Shown here one piece after another: positions 10,978 to 61,860 of a stretch of DNA of 64,000 nt (the stretch's first letter is position 1; every line of letters starts with the position of its first letter). A program made the position numbers and the translations under genes. The stretch lies in contig OZ245006.1 in NCBI GenBank assembly GCA_965223545.1, positions 7,488,001 through 7,552,000 of the forward strand. Direction: 5' to 3'. Source of the DNA: Planctomycetota bacterium. GTDB lineage: Bacteria > Planctomycetota > UBA1135 > UBA2386. The notes under the pieces are model-generated. The model did not search any database and had not been told where the DNA came from. It was given only the letters and a program-made list of their open reading frames with translations.

Positions 10978-10985
<8 letters not shown>

Positions 10986-11048
10986 AGGTACGGAGCCAGG
11001 CTCCGTACTCGACACACCGGTGAGGGTACGGAGCCAGGCTCCGTACTC
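10978..11048. repeat. Two tandem copies (38-bp period) of a REP-like palindrome GTACGGAGCC-A-GGCTCCGTAC
   Basis: Perfect 10-bp inverted arms at 10988-11008 and 11026-11046, between convergent acs and the KaiC-like gene. Confidence 0.9.
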
Positions 11049-11054
11049 ACGTAC

Positions 11055-52327: not shown

Positions 52328-53293
52328 ATGCGCTCCATCCTCGTCCTGAGCACGATGTCCGCCGCGGTGTTTGCCGCTACCGTCTACAGCTATCAGCGAG
52401 GGGCTTTGCCCGGTGCCACCGGCCAGGCCGGTACCGTGCCGGTGACCATCGCCCGCAATGGTCAGGGCTGTGGTCAGTGCCACACTCCGACCGCTGGTGC
52501 GCCGTTGCCGTCGTTGGATTTTGCCCCTCAGCAGCGATCTCTCGACCTGAGCCAGGCGATCCAGGTCACCGCGACCGCCAACGGTGGGGTGAACGGCACC
52601 CACGGCGGTTTCGTGGCGGAGGCGACGGCCGGCGCGTTCAGCGCCGGTACGACGAGCAAGATCGATGCGACCGGTGCGTTCATCACGCACCAGATCGCCG
52701 GGTTCGGGCGCACATGGCAGTTCGGCTACACCGCGCCGGCGACGCCGGGCGTGATCGAGATCTGGGCGGCGGGCAACACTGCCGATGGCGATGCCAGCGA
52801 GAACGGCGACAGCTGGGCGTTCCTCGGCGGCGCGCAGGCCAACTCGGCACCCACGCGGCTGTATGCCAACGCCGCTGGCGTCACCAACCTCGGCGATGGC
52901 TGCGTCGGTGGCTTCGGCCAGTGGCCCGTCCTCGGCGCGCCGCAGTCGCCGACGGTGGGCAACCCCACCTTCCGTTTGGAGTTGCACAGCGCGCCCCCCG
53001 CGACGGCCGCGATCTTCCTGCTGGGCACGACTCCGGTGTCGCTCAGCCTGACCCCGTTCGGCGTCGACAACTGCACGCTCTACACGCTGCCCAGCCTGCA
53101 GCTGACGATTCCGACCTCGCCGGGCGGCACCGCCGTCAACGGCGACGGCACCGCCGCGCTGCCGTTGCCGCTGCCGAACAACCCCGCCATCCGCGGCGTG
53201 ATGCTGCACGCCCAGGTCCTGGTCATCGATCCTGCCAGTGGCCGGCCGGCGAACGCGACCATGTCGAACGCGGTGACCATCACCGTCCTCTGA
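52328..53293 (+). CDS. Secreted Reeler/choice-of-anchor-V-like protein with CxxCH and shared C-terminal domain
   Basis: Signal peptide; GCGQCH, THQ, WQFGYTAP, AGNTADGD; ends MSNAVTITVL. Confidence 0.7.
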   Translation: MRSILVLSTMSAAVFAATVYSYQRGALPGATGQAGTVPVTIARNGQGCGQCHTPTAGAPLPSLDFAPQQRSLDLSQAIQVTATANGGVNGTHGGFVAEATAGAFSAGTTSKIDATGAFITHQIAGFGRTWQFGYTAPATPGVIEIWAAGNTADGDASENGDSWAFLGGAQANSAPTRLYANAAGVTNLGDGCVGGFGQWPVLGAPQSPTVGNPTFRLELHSAPPATAAIFLLGTTPVSLSLTPFGVDNCTLYTLPSLQLTIPTSPGGTAVNGDGTAALPLPLPNNPAIRGVMLHAQVLVIDPASGRPANATMSNAVTITVL

Positions 53294-53320
53294 AGGTACG
53301 GAGCCTGGCTCCGTTCCATC
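53291..53320. repeat. Intact REP-like palindrome (same family as 10988/11026)
   Basis: TGAAGGTACGGAGCC-T-GGCTCCGTTCC. Confidence 0.85.
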
Positions 53321-53353
53321 ACCGACCGAAGGTCAACTTCAAGCCGGCGGTGA

Positions 53354-53370
53354 TGAAGGTACGGAGCCTG
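53354..53370. repeat. Left half of the REP palindrome interrupted by IS110
   Basis: TGAAGGTACGGAGCCTG, ending in the CTG core. Confidence 0.85.
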
Positions 53371-53379
53371 ACCTGAAAC

Positions 53380-54762
53380 TCACCCAGCCTCGGCGATCGG
53401 TATGAGCTTGTACCCGAGGGATTTAGCGTTCTGTCGGAGTCCGACGATGCGTCGCTGGGTGAAGCGCTCCTCGTAGGCCTTGGCGCCTTCGTCTACGTAG
53501 TCCTGGCCGAACTTCAGCATGCGGTAGATGAGCAGGGCCAGTTTGCGGGCGATGGCAAAGATGGCGACGTTGCCGTCCTTCGCGCGGGCGATCTTGCGGA
53601 AGTGTGCGCCGAGAGCTGTCTGAGTACGTTGGAGGGACAGGGCGGCCATCCGGAGGACCGTGGCGATCCTGCTGACCGCGATGTTGTTGCGGTGCTTCTT
53701 GATGCGCTTTCCACCCGAGACGGCTTGACGTGGGCACAGGCGTAGCCAGGAGACGAAGTGCTTCTCGGTCGGGAAAGCTTCGAGGTCGTAGCCGACCTCG
53801 GTGAGCACGATCATGGCCGTGCTCGGGCTGATACCGTCGATTCGCGTGAGATCACACCCGACGAGCCGGCAGAGGGCATCGCGAAGCTCCCGGCCGCCCT
53901 TCGTTCGGATGCTCCTCTCCTTGCGGGGGTCTGGATGCTCGGGGACGTCGGCCGTCTTGGCTTCCTCCGGTTGCAGGTCCTCGATCATCGCCATCAATCG
54001 CTTCTCGACCGACTCGATCTCGTGGTCGGTGTGCTCGAGCATCCGCAAGCCCGAAGCGAGAGTGAAGATGTGCTCCTCGATCCAGGTCCCTTGCAAGTGA
54101 TCCGCGAGCTCCTTCTCGGAGATCTTGCAGCGCGGATCACGCAGTCTGGCGAGCGCTCGAGGGTCGCGTTCACCAGCGAGAATCGCGCGGATGATCGCGA
54201 GGCCGGTCTTGCCGGTGATGTCCGTTACCGCGCGATGGATCGCCACGTTCATCTGATCCAGTGACCGCTGCATCAACTGCGTGTGGCGCGTGCGCTGCGC
54301 GATCAAAGACGCGGCATGGCGTTGCAGGGTCCGCAACGCACAGATGTCCTTCGGAGGCCGGAACGAAGCGCGAATGAGGCCATAGGTGTGTAGCTTCTGC
54401 AGCCAACTGCAATCGCTGGCATCGGACTTGGAGCGGCCCGGCACGTTCTTCACCTCGCGGGCATTCGCGAGGATGACCTCGAAGCCTCTCGACTCGAGTA
54501 GCTCGTAGACGGGAATCCAGTAGACATAGGTGCTCTCCATCGCGACGGATCGCACTCCGAGCTCCTCCAGCCAGTCCGCGAGCGCCTCTAGCTGGGGCGT
54601 CGTCGTTCCGAATCGCTTGATCGGACGACTGCCGTCGGGTGCTGCTGCGCACACCCAGTGCTCGCGGCTGCCGATGTCGATTCCGGCGGCGTTGGGCTTC
54701 ACGACTGGCAATACTTCCGCTGCGGGCTTCTTGCCCTTCCTCGTTCTGCTCTTCCCAGCCAT
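53380..54762 (-). CDS. IS110-family DEDD recombinase/transposase
   Basis: GIDIGS (D), AMEST (E), KSDASD (D,D); C-terminal Tnp20 domain with IDGIS and LCP..AVSGG catalytic Ser. Confidence 0.95.
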   Translation of the reverse strand: MAGKSRTRKGKKPAAEVLPVVKPNAAGIDIGSREHWVCAAAPDGSRPIKRFGTTTPQLEALADWLEELGVRSVAMESTYVYWIPVYELLESRGFEVILANAREVKNVPGRSKSDASDCSWLQKLHTYGLIRASFRPPKDICALRTLQRHAASLIAQRTRHTQLMQRSLDQMNVAIHRAVTDITGKTGLAIIRAILAGERDPRALARLRDPRCKISEKELADHLQGTWIEEHIFTLASGLRMLEHTDHEIESVEKRLMAMIEDLQPEEAKTADVPEHPDPRKERSIRTKGGRELRDALCRLVGCDLTRIDGISPSTAMIVLTEVGYDLEAFPTEKHFVSWLRLCPRQAVSGGKRIKKHRNNIAVSRIATVLRMAALSLQRTQTALGAHFRKIARAKDGNVAIFAIARKLALLIYRMLKFGQDYVDEGAKAYEERFTQRRIVGLRQNAKSLGYKLIPIAEAG

Positions 54763-54784
54763 ACTTCATCCTCATTGTTGTGGT

Positions 54785-54937
54785 GGGCCCGGCCCGAGGC
54801 GGCGATCAAACGAATCTGACCTGCGGGAGTGGGCACGGCGACGTGCCCCTCACCAGTGAAGGATGGCCAACTCGGACCCAGACTGGCTCTGGGGCAAACG
54901 TGCTCCAGTGGCTATTGGGGGCGTAGCTGCCGGGCCC
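54785..54937 (-). ncRNA. Candidate bridge RNA in the IS110 non-coding end
   Basis: Long-range stem GGGCCCGGC/GCCGGGCCC encloses two hairpins; GAGCCAG (target match, 54883-54889) and CAGGTCAG (donor match, 54816-54823) on the transposase strand; boundaries approximate. Confidence 0.7.
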
Positions 54938-54968
54938 CTCACACGTTCCCCTCCCCCTTCCTCAGCGG

Positions 54969-56000
54969 CTAGTTTCCTGCCCTGAAGGGCCGACAAATCT
55001 GCCGGGGCAGGACTGGCTCCGTACCTTCAGTTCCCTTTCCGGGCGCGAGCCACGCTGCGGTGAATGCGCCGAGCCACCCACCCAGCGCGTTGCACCAGAA
55101 GTCGTCGATGGACGGGTTGCGCGCCGAGACGAACAGCTGCAACCCCTCGATGCCTGCGCTGTACGCCGCCGCCCAACCGGCGGCGGCCCACGCCCTGCGG
55201 CGCGCTAGCCACACGAGCACGGCGCCGAGTGGGACGAACAGCGCAACGTTGAACAGCAAGTCACGGCGGTTGGAGAAGCGCAGCGGGAGAAACCGCGGGT
55301 AGTTGCGCACCGACCAAAAACGCGCGGGCACGTCGAGATCGCCTCCGCGGACCCGGTGCTCGACGCCGCCGGCGTCGAACGTGAGCGCTTCGACGTCGCC
55401 GAGCCACGGCCGGTTGTAGGTGGGATCGTTGCCGACGACGAGCCGGTAGTCCGGGTCCCAGCGGGGAAACGGAGACTCGTTCAGTGCGCGATCGACGCGC
55501 ACGACTCCGTCCACCGCGACGCGCAGCCGGTGCGCACCAATGTCGACGGTGATCTCCCGCCACTCTCCTGCAGCCAGGGCACCCGCCACCGTCGCCACCG
55601 GCGCACGCCGCACGCGGCCGCCGGGATCGGAGCCCGGCATGCGCAAGTAGAAGACCAGGTCGTCTCCGTCTTGGCCGATGCCGAAGTTGCGCCGGTGCAC
55701 GTGCAGCGCGGTGGTCACAATCCATCCGAGCGGCGCGTCTTCCACCCGGGCCCTGGCGCGCAGGGAGATGCGCAGCTCGCCGCCGCCCATCGCTACAGCT
55801 TGCCAGGTCGGCGCCGCCTCGGTGCGAGCGATGCCGGGGCCCGCGAACTCGAACCCGCCGCTCGCCGTGGCGCGGGCGGCGTTCTCGAGCCGGCGAGGCA
55901 GTTCCCACTCGAACGGCCGCAGCAGTCCCCACGTGTAGATGCCGCCCATGGCGACGAGGACGAGCAGGCGGGCGCGCACACTCAGGTTCGGACTGGGCAA
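54969..56000 (-). CDS. LamG/concanavalin-like domain fused to a VanZ-like membrane domain
   Basis: NFGIGQDG, LVVGND...RPWLG; NVALFVPLG, IEGLQLF..R..SIDD..N..G; C-terminus now runs into the IS end. Confidence 0.75.
   Translation of the reverse strand: MPSPNLSVRARLLVLVAMGGIYTWGLLRPFEWELPRRLENAARATASGGFEFAGPGIARTEAAPTWQAVAMGGGELRISLRARARVEDAPLGWIVTTALHVHRRNFGIGQDGDDLVFYLRMPGSDPGGRVRRAPVATVAGALAAGEWREITVDIGAHRLRVAVDGVVRVDRALNESPFPRWDPDYRLVVGNDPTYNRPWLGDVEALTFDAGGVEHRVRGGDLDVPARFWSVRNYPRFLPLRFSNRRDLLFNVALFVPLGAVLVWLARRRAWAAAGWAAAYSAGIEGLQLFVSARNPSIDDFWCNALGGWLGAFTAAWLAPGKGTEGTEPVLPRQICRPFRAGN
55013..55029. repeat. Right half of the REP palindrome interrupted by IS110
   Basis: CTGGCTCCGTACCTTCA. 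Confidence 0.85.
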
Positions 56001-56070: not shown

Positions 56071-59000
56071 ATGTCGTCCTCCCCCGACCGTGTCGTCGTC
56101 GTCGGCGCGCGCGAGCACAATCTGCAGAACGTCGACGTCAGCTTTCCGCGCGACGCGCTGACCACGTTCACCGGCGTGTCCGGCTCGGGCAAGTCGAGCC
56201 TGGCCTACCACACGGTCTACCAGGAGGGGCAGCGGCGGTTCTTGGAAAGCCTGTCCAGCTATGCGCGCCAGTTCCTCGGCCGCATGGAGAAGCCAAAGGT
56301 CGACCGCGTCGAGGGGCTGTCGCCGACCGTGTCGATCGACCAGAAGCAGGGCAGCCACAGTCCGCGGTCGACGGTCGGCACGCTGACCGAGGTGCTCGAC
56401 TACTTGCGGCTCTTGTTCGCCCGGTTGGGCACGCCGCGCTGTCCGGTCTGCGATGCCGAGATCGAGGCCTGGTCGGTGGATCGGATCACCGAGACCGTGC
56501 TGCAGCGTTTCGCAGGGCAGCCCCTGCTCGTCTTGGCGCCGGTCGTGCGCGAGCGCAAGGGCGAGTATCGCAAGGAGCTGGCCGAGTTCCGCGCCCGTGG
56601 CTTCGTCCGTGCCCGCATCGACGGGCAGGTGCGGCGCCTCGACGAGGACATCGCGCTGCACCGCTACAAGTACCACACCATCGAGCTCGTGGTGGATCGC
56701 CTGCGCGTCGACGCCGCGCACAGCTCACGCCTGGCCGAGGCGGTCGAGCAGGCGCTGGGGTTGACCGGTGGGCTGCTGGCGGTGCTCTGCGAAGACGACT
56801 ACCAGCTGTTCTCGACCCAGCGGGCGTGCCCGGACGGACACGGCGCCCTGCCGGAGCTCGAGCCGCGGCTGTTCTCGTTCAACAGCCCGATCGGCGCGTG
56901 CGCCCACTGCGACGGCATGGGCGAGGTGCACAGCTTCGCGGAGAGCTTGCTGGTGCCGGACCCCGACCTGTCGCCGCGCGAAGGCGGGCTGCTGTGCATC
57001 ACCGGCGAGGGGCGATTGGCGTACAGCCAGCTCACGCTGGATCACCTCGACACGGTGGCCGCCGAGTACGGCTTCGACATGGACACGCCCTGGCGCGCGC
57101 TCAGCGCGGCGCAAAAGCGGGTGATGCTGCACGGCACCGGCAAGAAGAAGTTCGAGTTCGTCTGGCGCCGGCAAGGGCGCGGCTACTCGGCGCGCGGCAA
57201 GGATCGCAAGGCGTTTCCGGGGGTGATCGCGCACCTGGAGAAGGTCTACCGCGGCGCGACGGCGCGTCACCTCGACCGGTTTCGGGCCTCGACCGCGTGC
57301 CCCGAGTGCGACGGCCGCCGGCTCAACGACGCCGCCTGCGCGGTGCGGTTCGACGGGCACAGCTTGCCGGAGGTCTCCGCGTGGTCGGTGGCCGAGGCGC
57401 GCGCGTTCTTCGACGACCTGGAGCTGACCGGCAACGCCCTGGCGATCGGTCGCGAGGTGGTGCGGGCGATCCAGCAGCGGCTGCAGTTCCTCGACGAGGT
57501 CGGCCTCAGCTACCTGACCCTGGATCGGCGCGCCGACACGCTGTCCGGTGGCGAGTCGCAGCGCATTCGGTTGGCGGCGCAGGTGGGCTCCGGTTTGCGG
57601 GGAGTGTTGTACGTGCTGGACGAGCCCAGCATCGGTCTGCACGCCCGCGACCATGAGCGGCTGCTGGGTACGCTGGCCGCACTGCGCGACCGCGGCAACA
57701 CCGTCTGCGTCGTCGAGCACGATGAGGCGACGATGCGCGCCAGCGATCACGTCGTCGACGTCGGTCCCGACGCCGGCCGCGGCGGCGGGCGGATCGTAGT
57801 GTCGGGCACCGCGGCCGACGTCGCCGCCGCGCCGGCGTCGCTCACCGGCGCGTATCTGCGCGGCGAGCGTCGCATCGAGCTGCCGGCGGCGCGCCGGACC
57901 GACGACTGCGGCGCGCTCGTGGTGCGCAATGCGCGCCACCACAACCTGCGCGGCATCGACGTCGAGCTGCCGCTGGCGCGCTTGGTGGCGGTCACCGGAG
58001 TCTCCGGCTCGGGCAAGTCGACCTTGGTCAACCATATCCTGAAGCGGGCGTTGCGGCGCGCGCTGCACGGCGCACTGGACGTGCCCGGCGCGCACGACCG
58101 CATCGAGGGCGTCGAGCAGATCGACAAGCTGGTGGAGATCGATCAGGCGCCGATCGGCCGCACGCCGCGCAGCAATCCCGCGACCTACACCAAGACGTGG
58201 GACCACGTCCGCGATCTCTTCGCGGCGTTGCCCGAGTCGCGCGTGCGCGAGTACAAGAAGGGGCGCTTCTCGTTCAACGTCCGCGGCGGCCGCTGCGAGA
58301 GCTGCGAGGGCGCCGGCATCACCCTGCTCGAGATGCAGCTGTTGGCGCCGGTCGAGGTCGTCTGCGAGGACTGCGGCGGGCAGCGCTTCAATCCGGAGAC
58401 CCTGGAGATCGAGCTCAAGGGCCACAACGTGCACGACCTGCTCGAGCTCAGCGTCGACGAAGCGCTCGCCTTGCTCGGCGCGTTCCCCAAGATCGCGCGA
58501 CCCCTGCAGGCGCTGCACGACGTCGGTCTCGGCTACGTCAAGCTGGGCCAGCCCTCGACCACCTTGTCCGGCGGCGAGGCACAGCGCATCAAGTTGGCGA
58601 CCCAGCTGCAGCGGCCACCCACTGGCCGCACGCTGTACTTGTTGGACGAGCCGACCACCGGCCTGCACTTCGAGGACATCCGCCGGCTGATGCAGGCGTT
58701 GCAGCGGCTCGTCGACGCGGGCAACACCGTGGTCGTCATCGAACACAACCTCGACGTGGTTGCCTGCGCCGACTGGATCATCGACCTCGGGCCGGACGGC
58801 GGCTCGGGCGGCGGCGAGATCGTGGGCACCGGCACGCCGGAGGAAGTGGCGGCGTGCGCGGGCTCGCACACCGGCCGTGCGCTGAAGGCCGCACTCGCTC
58901 CGCGCAAGGCGCCGGCGCGGCGGCGGGCCGCGCGGCGCCGCGCGAGCCAGCGGCCGACGCACCTCGAGGTGGTCGGCGCGCGGCAGAACAACCTGCAGTC

Positions 59001-61860
59001 GGTCGATGCGCGGTTGCCGCTGGATCGGCTGACGGTGGTGACCGGGGTGTCGGGGTCGGGAAAGTCGAGCTTGGCGTTCGACACCCTGTTCAGCGAAGGC
59101 CAGCGCCGGTTCGTCGAGAGCTTGTCGACCTATGCCCGGCGATTCCTCGGTCGCATGGACCGCGCCCCCGTCGATCGGCTTGAGGGCATCGGACCGGCGA
59201 TCGCCATCGACCAGCGCGCCAGCCACCGCAGCCCGAGGTCGACGGTCGCCACCGCGACCGAGGTGCACGACTACCTGCGGCTGATGTACGCGCGCATCGG
59301 CCGGCCCCACTGTCCGGAGCACGGTCAAGAGCTGGTGCTGCACTCGCCGAGCAGCATCGCCCGCCAGCTGCGAGCCGAGTTCGAGGATGAGCGCGGCTAC
59401 ATCCTGGCGCCGGTGCGGATGCCAGAGGGCGTCCGCGGTGGTACCGAGGAGGGCCGCCGCGCGTTCCTCGATGCGCTGGTCGCGGGTTGGCGCGAGCAGG
59501 GGTTCGTGCGCGCCTGGGTCGACGGCGGCGAGCACCGGCTGGAGAAGCCGCTGCCGGCGTCCGCTGCCGCCGAGGCTGCGGTCGCGTTGGTCGTCGACCG
59601 GCTGCGGTTCGCCGATCGCGGCCGCGTCGTCGACAGCGTCGCGCAGGCCGGCGTGATGAGTGGCGGCCTGGTGATCGCGCGCACCACCGACGGCGCCGAA
59701 CGCGTGTTCTCCACCGACCGTTCTTGCCCGCACTGTGGCGTGTCGGTGCCCGCGCAACCGCACCCGCGCTACTTCTCGTTCAACCACCACAGCGGAGCGT
59801 GCAAGGCCTGCGGTGGGCTCGGGCAGTCGGTGGCGTGCGATCCCGACCTCCTCGTCAACCTGCCGGAGCGGCCGCTGTTCGGCGGCGCGATCAAGCACCG
59901 CGGCGCTGCCTTCACGTTCTTGTCCAAGCGCAACGGCTGGTACCACAAGGTGGCCAAGCAGGTCGCGCAGCACTTGGGCTTCGACCTCACGGTGGCGTAC
60001 GAGGAGTTGGCGCCAGAGCACCAGCGCGTGCTGATGTGGGGGCTCGAGGAGCCGCGCTTCGAGGTCACGTTTCGGCGCCAGCGGGCGAGCGGCAGTCGGA
60101 GCTACAAGGTCGCCGCCAAGTGGAAGGGGCTGTGCTCTCAGGTCGAGCAGTGGTTTCACGGTCACGATCAGAGCCAGGCGCCGGAGCGGCTGTCGGCGGT
60201 GATGCGGGTCGGGTCGTGCCCGGCGTGCGAGGGCGACCGGCTGCAGCTGGCGCAGCGCCACGTGACCATCGGCAAGCGGCCGCTGCCGGCGGTCTGTCGG
60301 ATGACCGTCGACGACGCCCTCGCCCATCTGCGCCGGTTGCGCCTGCGCAAGGCGGAGCGGACCGTCGCCCAGGACATCCTCGCCGAGATCGACAACCGGT
60401 TGGGGTTCCTGTCCGCGGTGGGGCTCGGCTACCTGACCTTGGATCGCTCGGCGGCGACGCTGTCGGGCGGCGAAGCGCAGCGAATCCGGTTGGCGAGTCA
60501 GCTCGGCAACCAGCTGGTCGGCGTGCTGTACGTGCTCGACGAGCCGACTGTCGGGCTGCACCCGCGCGACACCGAGCAGCTGTTGCAGACGCTGCACTCG
60601 CTGCGCGATCTGGGCAACACCGTGGTCGCGGTCGAGCACGACGAGCAGGTGATCCGCAGCGCGGATCACGTGCTCGACGTCGGCCCCGGCGCAGGCCATC
60701 GCGGCGGTCGGCTCGTCGCCAGCGGCAGCCCCGAAGAGGTGGCGGCGGCCGACTCGCTCACCGGTCGCTACCTGCGCGGCGAGCTCGGCATCCCCGTGCC
60801 CGCCGCGCGCAGCACGCCCCGCGCGCACATCGCGGTGCGCGATGCGCGCTGCCACAACCTGCGCGGCGTCGACGTCGACGTTCCGCTCGGCGTTCTCGCC
60901 GCGGTCACCGGGGTGTCCGGCTCGGGCAAGTCGAGCCTGGTGATGGACGTGCTGCTGCCGCAGTTGCGGCAGCCCAAGCTGCGCGTCGACGGCATCGGCG
61001 ATGCTTCGGTCGTGGTCGTCGACCAATCGCCGATCGGCACCACGCCGTCGAGCAACCCGGCGACCTACGCCGGGGTCATGACCCCGATCCGCGAGCTCTT
61101 CGCGGCGTTGCCGGAGTCACGGGTCAAGGGCTTTCGCGCCGGCCGCTTCTCCTTCAACGTCGCCGAGGGGCGCTGCCCGACCTGCGAGGGCAAGGGCCAG
61201 CTCCGCGTCGAGATGCACTTCTTGGCGGACGTCTGGGTCACCTGCGAGCTCTGTCGCGGCCGGCGCTACAACCAGGAGACCCTCACCGTGCACTACCGCG
61301 GCCGGACGATCGCGGACGTGCTGGAGATGGAGGTCGAGCAGGCGCTGCCGTTCTTCGCCAACTTGCCCAAGATCCGCGCACCGTTGCAGGCGCTCGCCGA
61401 CGTCGGGCTGGGCTACCTGAAGCTGGGACAGCCGGCCAACACCCTGTCGGGGGGCGAGGCCCAGCGCATCAAGCTGGTGTCGCGGCTGTGCAAGGCGTCG
61501 CGCGGTCACGTGATCCACCTCCTCGACGAGCCGACGACCGGGCTGCACCTGGAAGATGTGCGCAAGCTGGTCGATGTACTGGCTCGGCTGGTGCGGGCCG
61601 GCGACAGCGTGGTGGTCATCGAGCACCACCTCGACGTGATCAAGTGCGCCGATTGGGTGCTCGAGCTGGGTCCCGAAGCGGGCGATGGCGGCGGCCGCAT
61701 CGTGGTCGCCGGCACTCCCGAGGAGGTCGCGGCGTGTCGCGACAGCCACACTGGGCGGTTCTTGGCGCCGCTGCTCGCGCCGGCTCGTGCGCCCCGGACA
61801 AAGCGCCCGCGGCGCACATCCGCCGGCGTTTCGCGCCGCAATCGGGAGCAGGCGCAGTGA
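56071..61860 (+). CDS. uvrA: Excinuclease ABC subunit A, tandem-duplicated (1929 aa)
   Basis: Four GVSGSGKS Walker A motifs, four LSGGE/LDEP signatures, zinc-finger CxxC pairs; two UvrA units. Confidence 0.95.
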   Translation: MSSSPDRVVVVGAREHNLQNVDVSFPRDALTTFTGVSGSGKSSLAYHTVYQEGQRRFLESLSSYARQFLGRMEKPKVDRVEGLSPTVSIDQKQGSHSPRSTVGTLTEVLDYLRLLFARLGTPRCPVCDAEIEAWSVDRITETVLQRFAGQPLLVLAPVVRERKGEYRKELAEFRARGFVRARIDGQVRRLDEDIALHRYKYHTIELVVDRLRVDAAHSSRLAEAVEQALGLTGGLLAVLCEDDYQLFSTQRACPDGHGALPELEPRLFSFNSPIGACAHCDGMGEVHSFAESLLVPDPDLSPREGGLLCITGEGRLAYSQLTLDHLDTVAAEYGFDMDTPWRALSAAQKRVMLHGTGKKKFEFVWRRQGRGYSARGKDRKAFPGVIAHLEKVYRGATARHLDRFRASTACPECDGRRLNDAACAVRFDGHSLPEVSAWSVAEARAFFDDLELTGNALAIGREVVRAIQQRLQFLDEVGLSYLTLDRRADTLSGGESQRIRLAAQVGSGLRGVLYVLDEPSIGLHARDHERLLGTLAALRDRGNTVCVVEHDEATMRASDHVVDVGPDAGRGGGRIVVSGTAADVAAAPASLTGAYLRGERRIELPAARRTDDCGALVVRNARHHNLRGIDVELPLARLVAVTGVSGSGKSTLVNHILKRALRRALHGALDVPGAHDRIEGVEQIDKLVEIDQAPIGRTPRSNPATYTKTWDHVRDLFAALPESRVREYKKGRFSFNVRGGRCESCEGAGITLLEMQLLAPVEVVCEDCGGQRFNPETLEIELKGHNVHDLLELSVDEALALLGAFPKIARPLQALHDVGLGYVKLGQPSTTLSGGEAQRIKLATQLQRPPTGRTLYLLDEPTTGLHFEDIRRLMQALQRLVDAGNTVVVIEHNLDVVACADWIIDLGPDGGSGGGEIVGTGTPEEVAACAGSHTGRALKAALAPRKAPARRRAARRRASQRPTHLEVVGARQNNLQSVDARLPLDRLTVVTGVSGSGKSSLAFDTLFSEGQRRFVESLSTYARRFLGRMDRAPVDRLEGIGPAIAIDQRASHRSPRSTVATATEVHDYLRLMYARIGRPHCPEHGQELVLHSPSSIARQLRAEFEDERGYILAPVRMPEGVRGGTEEGRRAFLDALVAGWREQGFVRAWVDGGEHRLEKPLPASAAAEAAVALVVDRLRFADRGRVVDSVAQAGVMSGGLVIARTTDGAERVFSTDRSCPHCGVSVPAQPHPRYFSFNHHSGACKACGGLGQSVACDPDLLVNLPERPLFGGAIKHRGAAFTFLSKRNGWYHKVAKQVAQHLGFDLTVAYEELAPEHQRVLMWGLEEPRFEVTFRRQRASGSRSYKVAAKWKGLCSQVEQWFHGHDQSQAPERLSAVMRVGSCPACEGDRLQLAQRHVTIGKRPLPAVCRMTVDDALAHLRRLRLRKAERTVAQDILAEIDNRLGFLSAVGLGYLTLDRSAATLSGGEAQRIRLASQLGNQLVGVLYVLDEPTVGLHPRDTEQLLQTLHSLRDLGNTVVAVEHDEQVIRSADHVLDVGPGAGHRGGRLVASGSPEEVAAADSLTGRYLRGELGIPVPAARSTPRAHIAVRDARCHNLRGVDVDVPLGVLAAVTGVSGSGKSSLVMDVLLPQLRQPKLRVDGIGDASVVVVDQSPIGTTPSSNPATYAGVMTPIRELFAALPESRVKGFRAGRFSFNVAEGRCPTCEGKGQLRVEMHFLADVWVTCELCRGRRYNQETLTVHYRGRTIADVLEMEVEQALPFFANLPKIRAPLQALADVGLGYLKLGQPANTLSGGEAQRIKLVSRLCKASRGHVIHLLDEPTTGLHLEDVRKLVDVLARLVRAGDSVVVIEHHLDVIKCADWVLELGPEAGDGGGRIVVAGTPEEVAACRDSHTGRFLAPLLAPARAPRTKRPRRTSAGVSRRNREQAQ

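Follow-up and report, generated by a model that had tools for sequence, protein, structure and literature searches.

The element, its target repeat and its copies

The window, which is the whole stretch of 64,000 nucleotides analysed here, carries an IS110 element inserted into the centre of a REP palindrome. Its single gene encodes a DEDD/Ser recombinase of 460 aa (53380..54762, minus strand), assigned from the open reading frame, profile matches, an alignment and a structure model. The gene lies between a left end of ~250 nt and a right end of ~10 nt, and the left end contains a predicted bridge RNA of 159 nt (54782..54940, minus strand). In the terms used for IS621, the plus strand of the window corresponds to the top strand, and with respect to the CT core the cassette has the inverse orientation. 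The left half of the target REP occupies 53354..53367 (junction sequence and empty-site reconstruction) and its right half 55015..55029 (junction sequence and guide matching), the latter being read by the guide G2 described below. The triplet CTG is present at both junctions (53368-53370 and 55013-55015). When the element and one CTG were removed in silico, the rebuilt empty site was a 31-mer, self-complementary at 30 of 31 positions and matching the 15+1+15 palindrome that a sequence-only reading of this DNA had proposed. The three intact repeats of the same family that this reading had placed in the window were found in a repeat search: an unoccupied neighbour of the element (53291..53321, core at 53300) and a pair at 10983..11049 (cores at 10992 and 11030).

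The genome (8.1 Mb, two contigs, 69.7% GC) has 85 intact 13-nt REP cores, compared with 0.33 expected under an order-5 Markov model. The short palindrome is thus abundant, is often paired and stands beside a gene for a Y1 tyrosine transposase (PF01797) that sits between two occupied REPs, and we therefore regard it as a RAYT-type REP. A second PF01797 gene, 45% identical to the first, has no REP core within 400 bp. Insertion into a REP is ordinary in itself, as REP targeting is already known for IS621, ISPpu9 and ISPpu10.

We found 23 full copies of the element and one relic in the genome. The full copies are more than 99% alike and have fixed ends, measure 1642 or 1643 bp between the CTG triplets, and vary at 12 internal columns, which define two main haplotypes (n = 17 and n = 6). 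The proposal that all other copies would lie in the REP centre held up in the genome-wide check: the left end follows one REP arm in 23 of 23 copies, the right end leads into the other arm in 22 of 23, and the orientation is the same throughout. The exception, at C1:4826231, is a tandem duplication of the element with 175 bp of its flank, in which the right end is joined to a non-REP site carrying TAG where the donor has CAG.

This copy bears on the extent of the core, for which the full CTG had been put forward. The triplet is indeed present at both junctions, but the exceptional right end joins a site that shares AG alone, and among 42 elements with an AG core the third base (before AG) is common to target and donor in just 18. 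We therefore rejected the 3-nt core in favour of a core of 2 nt, CT on the plus strand and AG in the direction of the gene. It was placed at 53368..53369 at the window-left junction from the AG-only join and the 42 AG-core elements, and at 55013..55014 at the window-right junction from the junction sequence and core comparison. A 2-nt core shared by target and donor, with no terminal inverted repeats in any of the 23 copies, is the pattern of IS110 elements.

In two sequencing runs of one study the element was assembled as a single 1636-nt contig at a depth of 60-69, with flanks at 2-10; the window may itself derive from these runs, and they are not counted as independent. Neither the circle junction nor the empty site of the window element was seen in the assembled contigs of 4 of 4 sequencing runs, which is no evidence either way, because contigs drop rare forms. 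Assemblies of three relatives (L106, L110 and L123) contain head-to-tail junctions exactly at AG, which may represent circles or tandem dimers. Judged from copies and junctions, the element is a real REP-targeting IS110 element that has been active recently.

The recombinase

The 460-aa open reading frame passed the cut-offs of PF01548, PF02371 and NF033542 in a profile search. The DEDD and Ser motifs recognized earlier are conserved: D29, D114 and D117 are invariant in 65 of 65 aligned relatives, E76 is present in 64 of 65, and 54 sequences carry S at position 349, the other 11 T. The predicted structure (pLDDT 89.5) has IS621 and ISCro4 as its best matches (Foldseek E 4e-13, TM 0.75 on the target, 20% identity). 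Domains, catalytic residues and fold thus all place the protein in the IS110 family. The sequence-only reading had implied that its length was new; it is not unusual within the family, since IS110 recombinases of ~300-460 aa are described in PMC11208160 and IS110 subgroup proteins of 395-455 aa in PMC11187229. The 64 relatives have 432-474 aa, with start codons called in this analysis and a filter of 400-500 aa applied. With one relative as the query, at least 7625 clusters among 8000 scored were found at E <= 1e-100, and no ISPpu9 or ISfinder name occurred among the best 120 matches of a protein search with one relative. One distant relative at E <= 1e-40 was present among 60 related genomes searched.

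A predicted bridge RNA and its guides

The predicted RNA consists of a closing stem, a target loop and a donor loop, as judged from profile, alignment and fold; its ends were taken from the closing stem. Relatives were taken from loci in genomes (75) and metagenomes (80). A protein match was present at 157 loci; upstream sequence of at least 330 nt was available at 120 of them, and 106 matched an iterated left-end RNA profile. Removal of near-duplicates reduced the set to 80, and in 76 of these the upstream DNA was long enough. In 48 elements, 26 close and 22 distant (<50% identity), the two junctions were both callable. In an RNAalifold alignment of 41 sequences, the closing stem and two internal loops were recovered with compensatory change in 24 of 35 pairs; in this consensus G1, G2 and G4 are unpaired and G3 is mostly unpaired. 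General scans added little: an Rfam scan of 53200-55200 gave four matches, all at chance level, folding of the left end alone was uninformative (z = -1.68), and a scan for sigma-70 promoters and terminators found none, with no consensus promoter in 54740-55080 of the unjoined ends.

Guide matching assigned one guide to each loop strand, all on the minus strand. G1 (54909..54918), on the 5' strand of the target loop (IS621 'LTG'), matches with ~4 nt the REP half beyond the 3' end of the gene. G2 (54881..54890), on the 3' strand (IS621 'RTG'), matches REP and core with 7 of 8 nt, and its tail (54881-54882) supplies two handshake-like bases that equal the first two bases of the left end. G4 (54816..54823), on the 3' strand of the donor loop (IS621 'RDG'), is complementary at 8 of 8 positions to the core and 53370-53375 on the plus strand.

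These matches recur across relatives. G2 matched the upstream DNA at 7/8 or better in 51 of 76 relatives (mean 6.67, compared with 5.33 for swapped guides), and G4 matched the right end equally well in 56 of 67 (7.03 compared with 5.40). Because the junctions were called from G2 and G4, the corresponding rows of the junction-based test are circular, and the evidence for these two guides rests on the swapped-guide test and the boundaries of multi-copy elements. G1 matched the reverse complement of the downstream flank weakly, yet above every permutation (3.77 versus 2.99 permuted, maximum 3.58; 26 elements). In the close clade the handshake-like bases after G2 were borderline (1.08 versus 0.69, maximum 1.12), and those after G4 gave no signal (0.27 versus 0.40). 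As in IS621, the two target guides match different strands, one on each side of the core, G2 over a long and G1 over a short stretch. Together they specify a 10-mer with 104 occurrences in the genome, which is contained in the 85 intact 13-nt REP cores, enough to account for the choice of REPs.

To summarize, the guides of the predicted bridge RNA track target and donor across relatives, and by sequence comparison alone the two-loop RNA behaves as expected of IS110, three of its four guides following IS621. With 23 copies at REP centres and guides that match and change with the target and the right end, the proposal of a REP-targeting, RNA-guided recombinase is well founded at this level.

The left-donor guide appears to read an internal site

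The fourth guide, G3 (54857..54864, minus strand), forms the 5' strand of the donor loop (IS621 'LDG'). In IS621 the left-donor guide matches the reverse complement of the core and the start of the left end (PMC11208160, PMC11208158). At this canonical position G3 gave no signal in either 26 close relatives (2.42 versus 2.36 permuted) or 22 distant ones (2.50 versus 2.35), and in the window element the core-adjacent donor half on the left-end side (55006..55012, plus strand) has no guide match except two handshake-like bases. The simple double-stranded donor site proposed earlier is therefore not supported, since the RNA has no guide for this half.

Guide matching and co-variation assign G3 instead to a site inside the left end, at 54983..54990 (plus strand), to which it is complementary at 6 of 8 positions plus one possible wobble. 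Compared in the same sense with the upstream DNA, G3 matched in 32 of 38 relatives at 50% identity or above (7.26 versus 5.35) and in 6 of 38 distant ones. The site, 22-30 nt into the left end, comes directly after a conserved hairpin. When the hairpin was called independently, the 8 nt directly behind it matched G3 with 6.00/8, above the permuted mean of 4.76 and maximum of 5.42, and a shift by 1-2 nt abolished the match. Over 29 distinct G3 types the values were 6.07 versus 4.12. In 22 relatives below 50% identity, the test at a fixed offset was null (2.45 versus 2.37), with many matches of 5-7/8 at nearby offsets.

The two sites also change together. On a protein tree of 33 elements (three of 36 were dropped as they lacked an anchor; a fixed consensus served to anchor the site), the site mirrored 21 of 28 lineage-level departures of G3 against a background of 0.6, and four more were wobble-compatible; the 21/28 may be inflated by poorly resolved parts of the tree and by single lineages changing at several positions. 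Sign tests on independent pairs for each position were underpowered, with too few pairs and none significant. An antisense partner co-varying with G3 was not found inside the element (5.79 versus 5.81), and eight relatives with weak matches showed no clear antisense match either; a role of G3 as half of an internal RNA switch was rejected on this ground. With a same-sense match and no co-varying antisense partner, the two donor guides, G3 as well as G4, are complementary to the CT strand and so do not lie on opposite strands around the core as they do in IS621.

Thus, comparison across relatives demonstrates the co-variation of G3 with the left-end site, and the change in donor recognition is well supported. 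It is also apparently undescribed: we found no account of a same-strand fold-back donor in the IS110 literature covered, which excluded figures (for example the six diverse RNAs in Fig. 6d of PMC11208160), preprint supplements and subscription journals, and three motifs of the clade were not found in six of the seven supplementary files of PMC11208160.

Architecture of the donor ends

On the right side, the 5 nt between core and inverted repeat (53370..53374, plus strand) form the right-donor half read by G4. The earlier reading had found no terminal inverted repeats. None is terminal, but repeat comparison revealed a sub-terminal one of 6 bp, with one copy at the 3' end of the gene (53375..53380) and the other within the left end at a distance of 36 nt from the core (54971..54976). 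Between the latter and the core lies the left-end hairpin (54990..55005), identified by folding and from the copies, with five Watson-Crick pairs and one mismatch; the 6-copy haplotype differs inside it. Both features are general in the 48 elements: the inverted copy of the right-end motif in the left end reaches 7.27 bp for an element's own motif versus 5.24 for swapped ones, and the hairpin 5.62 pairs versus 4.27 in shuffled sequence.

Since the G3 site is located between hairpin and inverted repeat, one folded strand would give a bubble of 15x13 nt that resembles a double-stranded donor. Among 26 close relatives, the core-side length is 8+2+5 = 15 nt in 18 and the opposite side 13 nt in 14. 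Variation in length is lower for the two sides (SD 0.75 and 0.82 nt) than for the hairpin, which spans 12-21 nt (SD 1.90). As naked DNA the window element prefers another 9-bp register of the left end, with pairing probabilities on the CT strand of 0.45 for the inverted repeat and 0.01 for the hairpin, so the fold would depend on selection by protein and RNA. Folding energies showed no preference between the strands, either of which folds equally well, and wobble counts gave no signal for strand choice (internal GT 10 versus AC 12).

Proposed mechanism and alternatives

We consider it probable that the element encodes a bridge recombinase of a large clade of long proteins in which G3 reads the folded CT strand, and that it moves as one strand with the help of host repair. 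The target loop would open the REP duplex as in IS621, with ~7 nt of G2 and ~4 nt of G1. The CT-bearing strand of the joined ends would fold on itself as the donor: the sub-terminal repeats would pair on one side and the left-end hairpin would close the other, leaving the bubble of ~15 by 13 nt. G4 would pair with the side that bears the core and is cut, and G3 with the part of this strand across the bubble, which would stand in for the bottom strand of a donor duplex. One strand would be copied out and inserted, and host repair would make the second. The fold, its use in catalysis and the movement of one strand are what we infer from this architecture; the fold is probably needed more for insertion than for excision.

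An unlikely alternative, although the strongest, is a regulatory or docking function, in which G4 and the target loop suffice as a half-match and G3 forms an R-loop in an ordinary double-stranded left end, tethering it, biasing direction or controlling the element's promoter just downstream. It accounts for the G3 co-variation equally well; half-match recombination has been reported for IS621, one copy has its right end joined to a non-REP site sharing just AG, and the ISPpu9 palindrome mutant still circularises. It leaves unexplained the conserved hairpin, the inverted repeat and the spacings of 7-8 + 2 + 5, which reproduce the IS621 donor layout (core at positions 8-9, right half at 10-14), and deletion of the whole A box of ISPpu9 is reported to abolish circles.

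We regard as improbable that a double-stranded circle extrudes the fold as a cruciform, through supercoiling and protein binding, and exchanges both strands as IS621 does. The exact AG head-to-tail junctions in the assemblies of the three relatives imply that joined ends exist as double-stranded DNA, circles of ISPpu9 were detected by PCR, and the fold is equally good on either strand. However, an unpaired bubble of 13-15 nt between two short stems would make a poor cruciform, and the stand-in strand has TG rather than AG opposite the core, so that exchange of a second strand there would not regenerate the ends. That the element is an ordinary IS621-like one, and the identity of G3 and left end a functionless relic left by an ancient duplication or by common descent, is very improbable: G3 is fairly conserved, kin share letters and distant relatives match weakly, but shared ancestry does not yield repeated identical changes at two sites (21/28 versus 0.6 expected), a concordance that largely refutes the relic, and the canonical donor match is absent.

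For the preferred reading, G3 on a folded CT strand and movement of one strand, published observations fit in part. Single-strand excision has been reported for IS621, and excision and insertion of the top strand for CazIS110-1, both in agreement with it. The preference of CazIS110-1 for duplex does not agree: at one junction, integration of double-stranded donors was reported to be ~20-fold better, so single-strand donors cannot be regarded as the norm in the family. Whether IS110 elements move one strand or two is in open dispute, with two-strand structures on the other side, and the one-strand route would gain natural evidence from a clade whose donor guide can pair only with a single strand folded on itself. 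When elements are mined for tools, a donor reduced to 14 bp according to IS621 rules would fail for this large clade; if the reading is correct, the recombinase could serve to place single-stranded cargo at programmable sites of ~10 nt.

Comparison with known systems

With IS621 and ISCro4 (IS622), as described in PMC11208160 and PMC11208158 and in PDB 8wt6 and 9t56, the element shares the fold, the DEDD and Ser residues, the 2-nt CT core, a two-loop RNA in the left end, handshake-like bases after G2 and a REP target. It differs in its protein (460 aa versus chains of 305-341 residues; the middle region is larger and residues 427-448 form a C-terminal helix), in a cassette inverted relative to the CT strand, in short 5' and long 3' guides, in inverted repeats of 6-9 bp in the clade versus 2-3 bp, and in a left-donor guide assigned to a site inside the left end, on the strand that the right-donor guide also reads. 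The IS1111 group (seekRNA, PMC11187229) has the same guide order relative to the gene, with the complement of the top strand first, and likewise has sub-terminal inverted repeats. Its RNA, however, is encoded downstream of the gene, where the window element lacks a long region, and its repeats of 11-13 bp lie 3 and 7 nt from the core, compared with 6-9 bp at 5 and ~35 nt in the window clade (6 bp at 5 and 36 nt in the window element, whose protein has 460 aa versus 330-350 aa). ISPpu10 (bioRxiv 10.64898/2026.03.19.712850) is a REP-targeting IS110 element in which a DNA stem-loop also adds to RNA guiding, but there the stem-loop is in the target and the donor guides are on opposite strands, whereas here it is in the donor. 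Canonical donor loops are described for both ISPpu10 and CazIS110-1.

The closest studied element, as judged by eye from the layout of the ends and not from the proteins, is ISPpu9 of Pseudomonas putida KT2440 (PMC12288879). Like the window element, it has a REP target, AG as the core in gene direction, a long left box (43-bp type), a short right box and a palindrome near the left end; no promoter is made at its own junction (the unjoined 54740-55080 was what we scanned in the window element). By eye, its right box (Tables S2, S4 and S5) reads as a 6-bp repeat, 5 nt and AG, and its left box as AG, 6-7 nt, the hairpin, 13-14 nt and the inverted 6-bp repeat; two ssr9 primers (Table S1) show the loop motifs of the window clade, and in one of them a 7-nt stretch matching the right box comes next. 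ISPpu9 uses another REP and other guides and has the small RNAs Asr9 and Ssr9. In the available text of PMC12288879 the bridge-RNA guides are not mapped and the inverted repeat of the A and B boxes is not mentioned. A mutant of the left-end palindrome gave wild-type minicircles by end-point PCR, and the left box was needed for circles; the authors suggest a role of the palindrome in integration (PMC12288879). Circularisation of this mutant counts against a need for the fold in excision. That a large IS110 clade, probably including ISPpu9, has a donor loop that reads a folded single strand, its own mock duplex, and moves as single-stranded DNA is a tentative proposal to which we give somewhat less than an even chance. 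If true, it would be an RNA-guided counterpart of integron cassettes and of IS200/IS605. IS200/IS605 elements and integron attC sites recombine on a folded single strand that resembles a duplex; they do so with HUH or tyrosine enzymes and recognition of the fold by protein only, whereas the element described here combines a DEDD/Ser enzyme with an RNA guide.

Head-to-tail junctions and aberrant copies

Among the relatives of the element, three loci (L106, L110 and L123) contained a right end followed head-to-tail by a left end, joined precisely at AG, the core of the element in gene direction. The same right-end-to-left-end arrangement was found in a fourth relative, L122, with a few additional bases at the joint. 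In the element's own genome, a tandem duplication of the element together with 175 bp of flank was present on contig C1 at 4826056-4829690; its right end was joined to a non-REP site that had only AG in common, as would be expected if recombination at a half-matched site had occurred naturally at one end alone. A relic at C1:988112-988240, in which gene codons 7-44 were fused to the right end, lacked the left end and lay outside any REP.

Genomic neighbourhood and other IS110 types

Within the window, a gene for a choice-of-anchor V domain protein (NF041895; 52328-53293, + strand) lies directly ahead of the neighbouring REP and the element. A 1929-aa open reading frame with four repeated P-loop segments (56071-61860, + strand) resembles a UvrA in doubled form.

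At C1:3912823-3917190, two mutually inverted element copies, each occupying one flanking REP, enclosed the gene for a 333-aa Y1 (RAYT-like) transposase in a composite-transposon-like unit. The Y1 gene probably spreads the element's own target, the REP.

The IS110 profile NF033542 gave 15 additional matches on C1 beyond the element, including at least two other IS110 types: one with 11 copies of ~1950 bp and a long non-coding region on each side, and one with 3 copies of ~1500 bp and a non-coding region downstream. Their flanks look like a repeat distinct from the element's REP.

Comparison with relatives

The distant relatives L023 (archaeal) and L030 had neither the internal site for G3, the left-donor guide of the predicted bridge RNA, nor a clear inverted repeat. 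The hairpin and inverted repeat were retained in proteobacterial relatives with the core AA (L182-L186 and several metagenome loci), which were inserted in an A-run. One neighbour of these relatives carries an IS3 annotation, and we take the A-run to resemble the frameshift window of IS3 elements.
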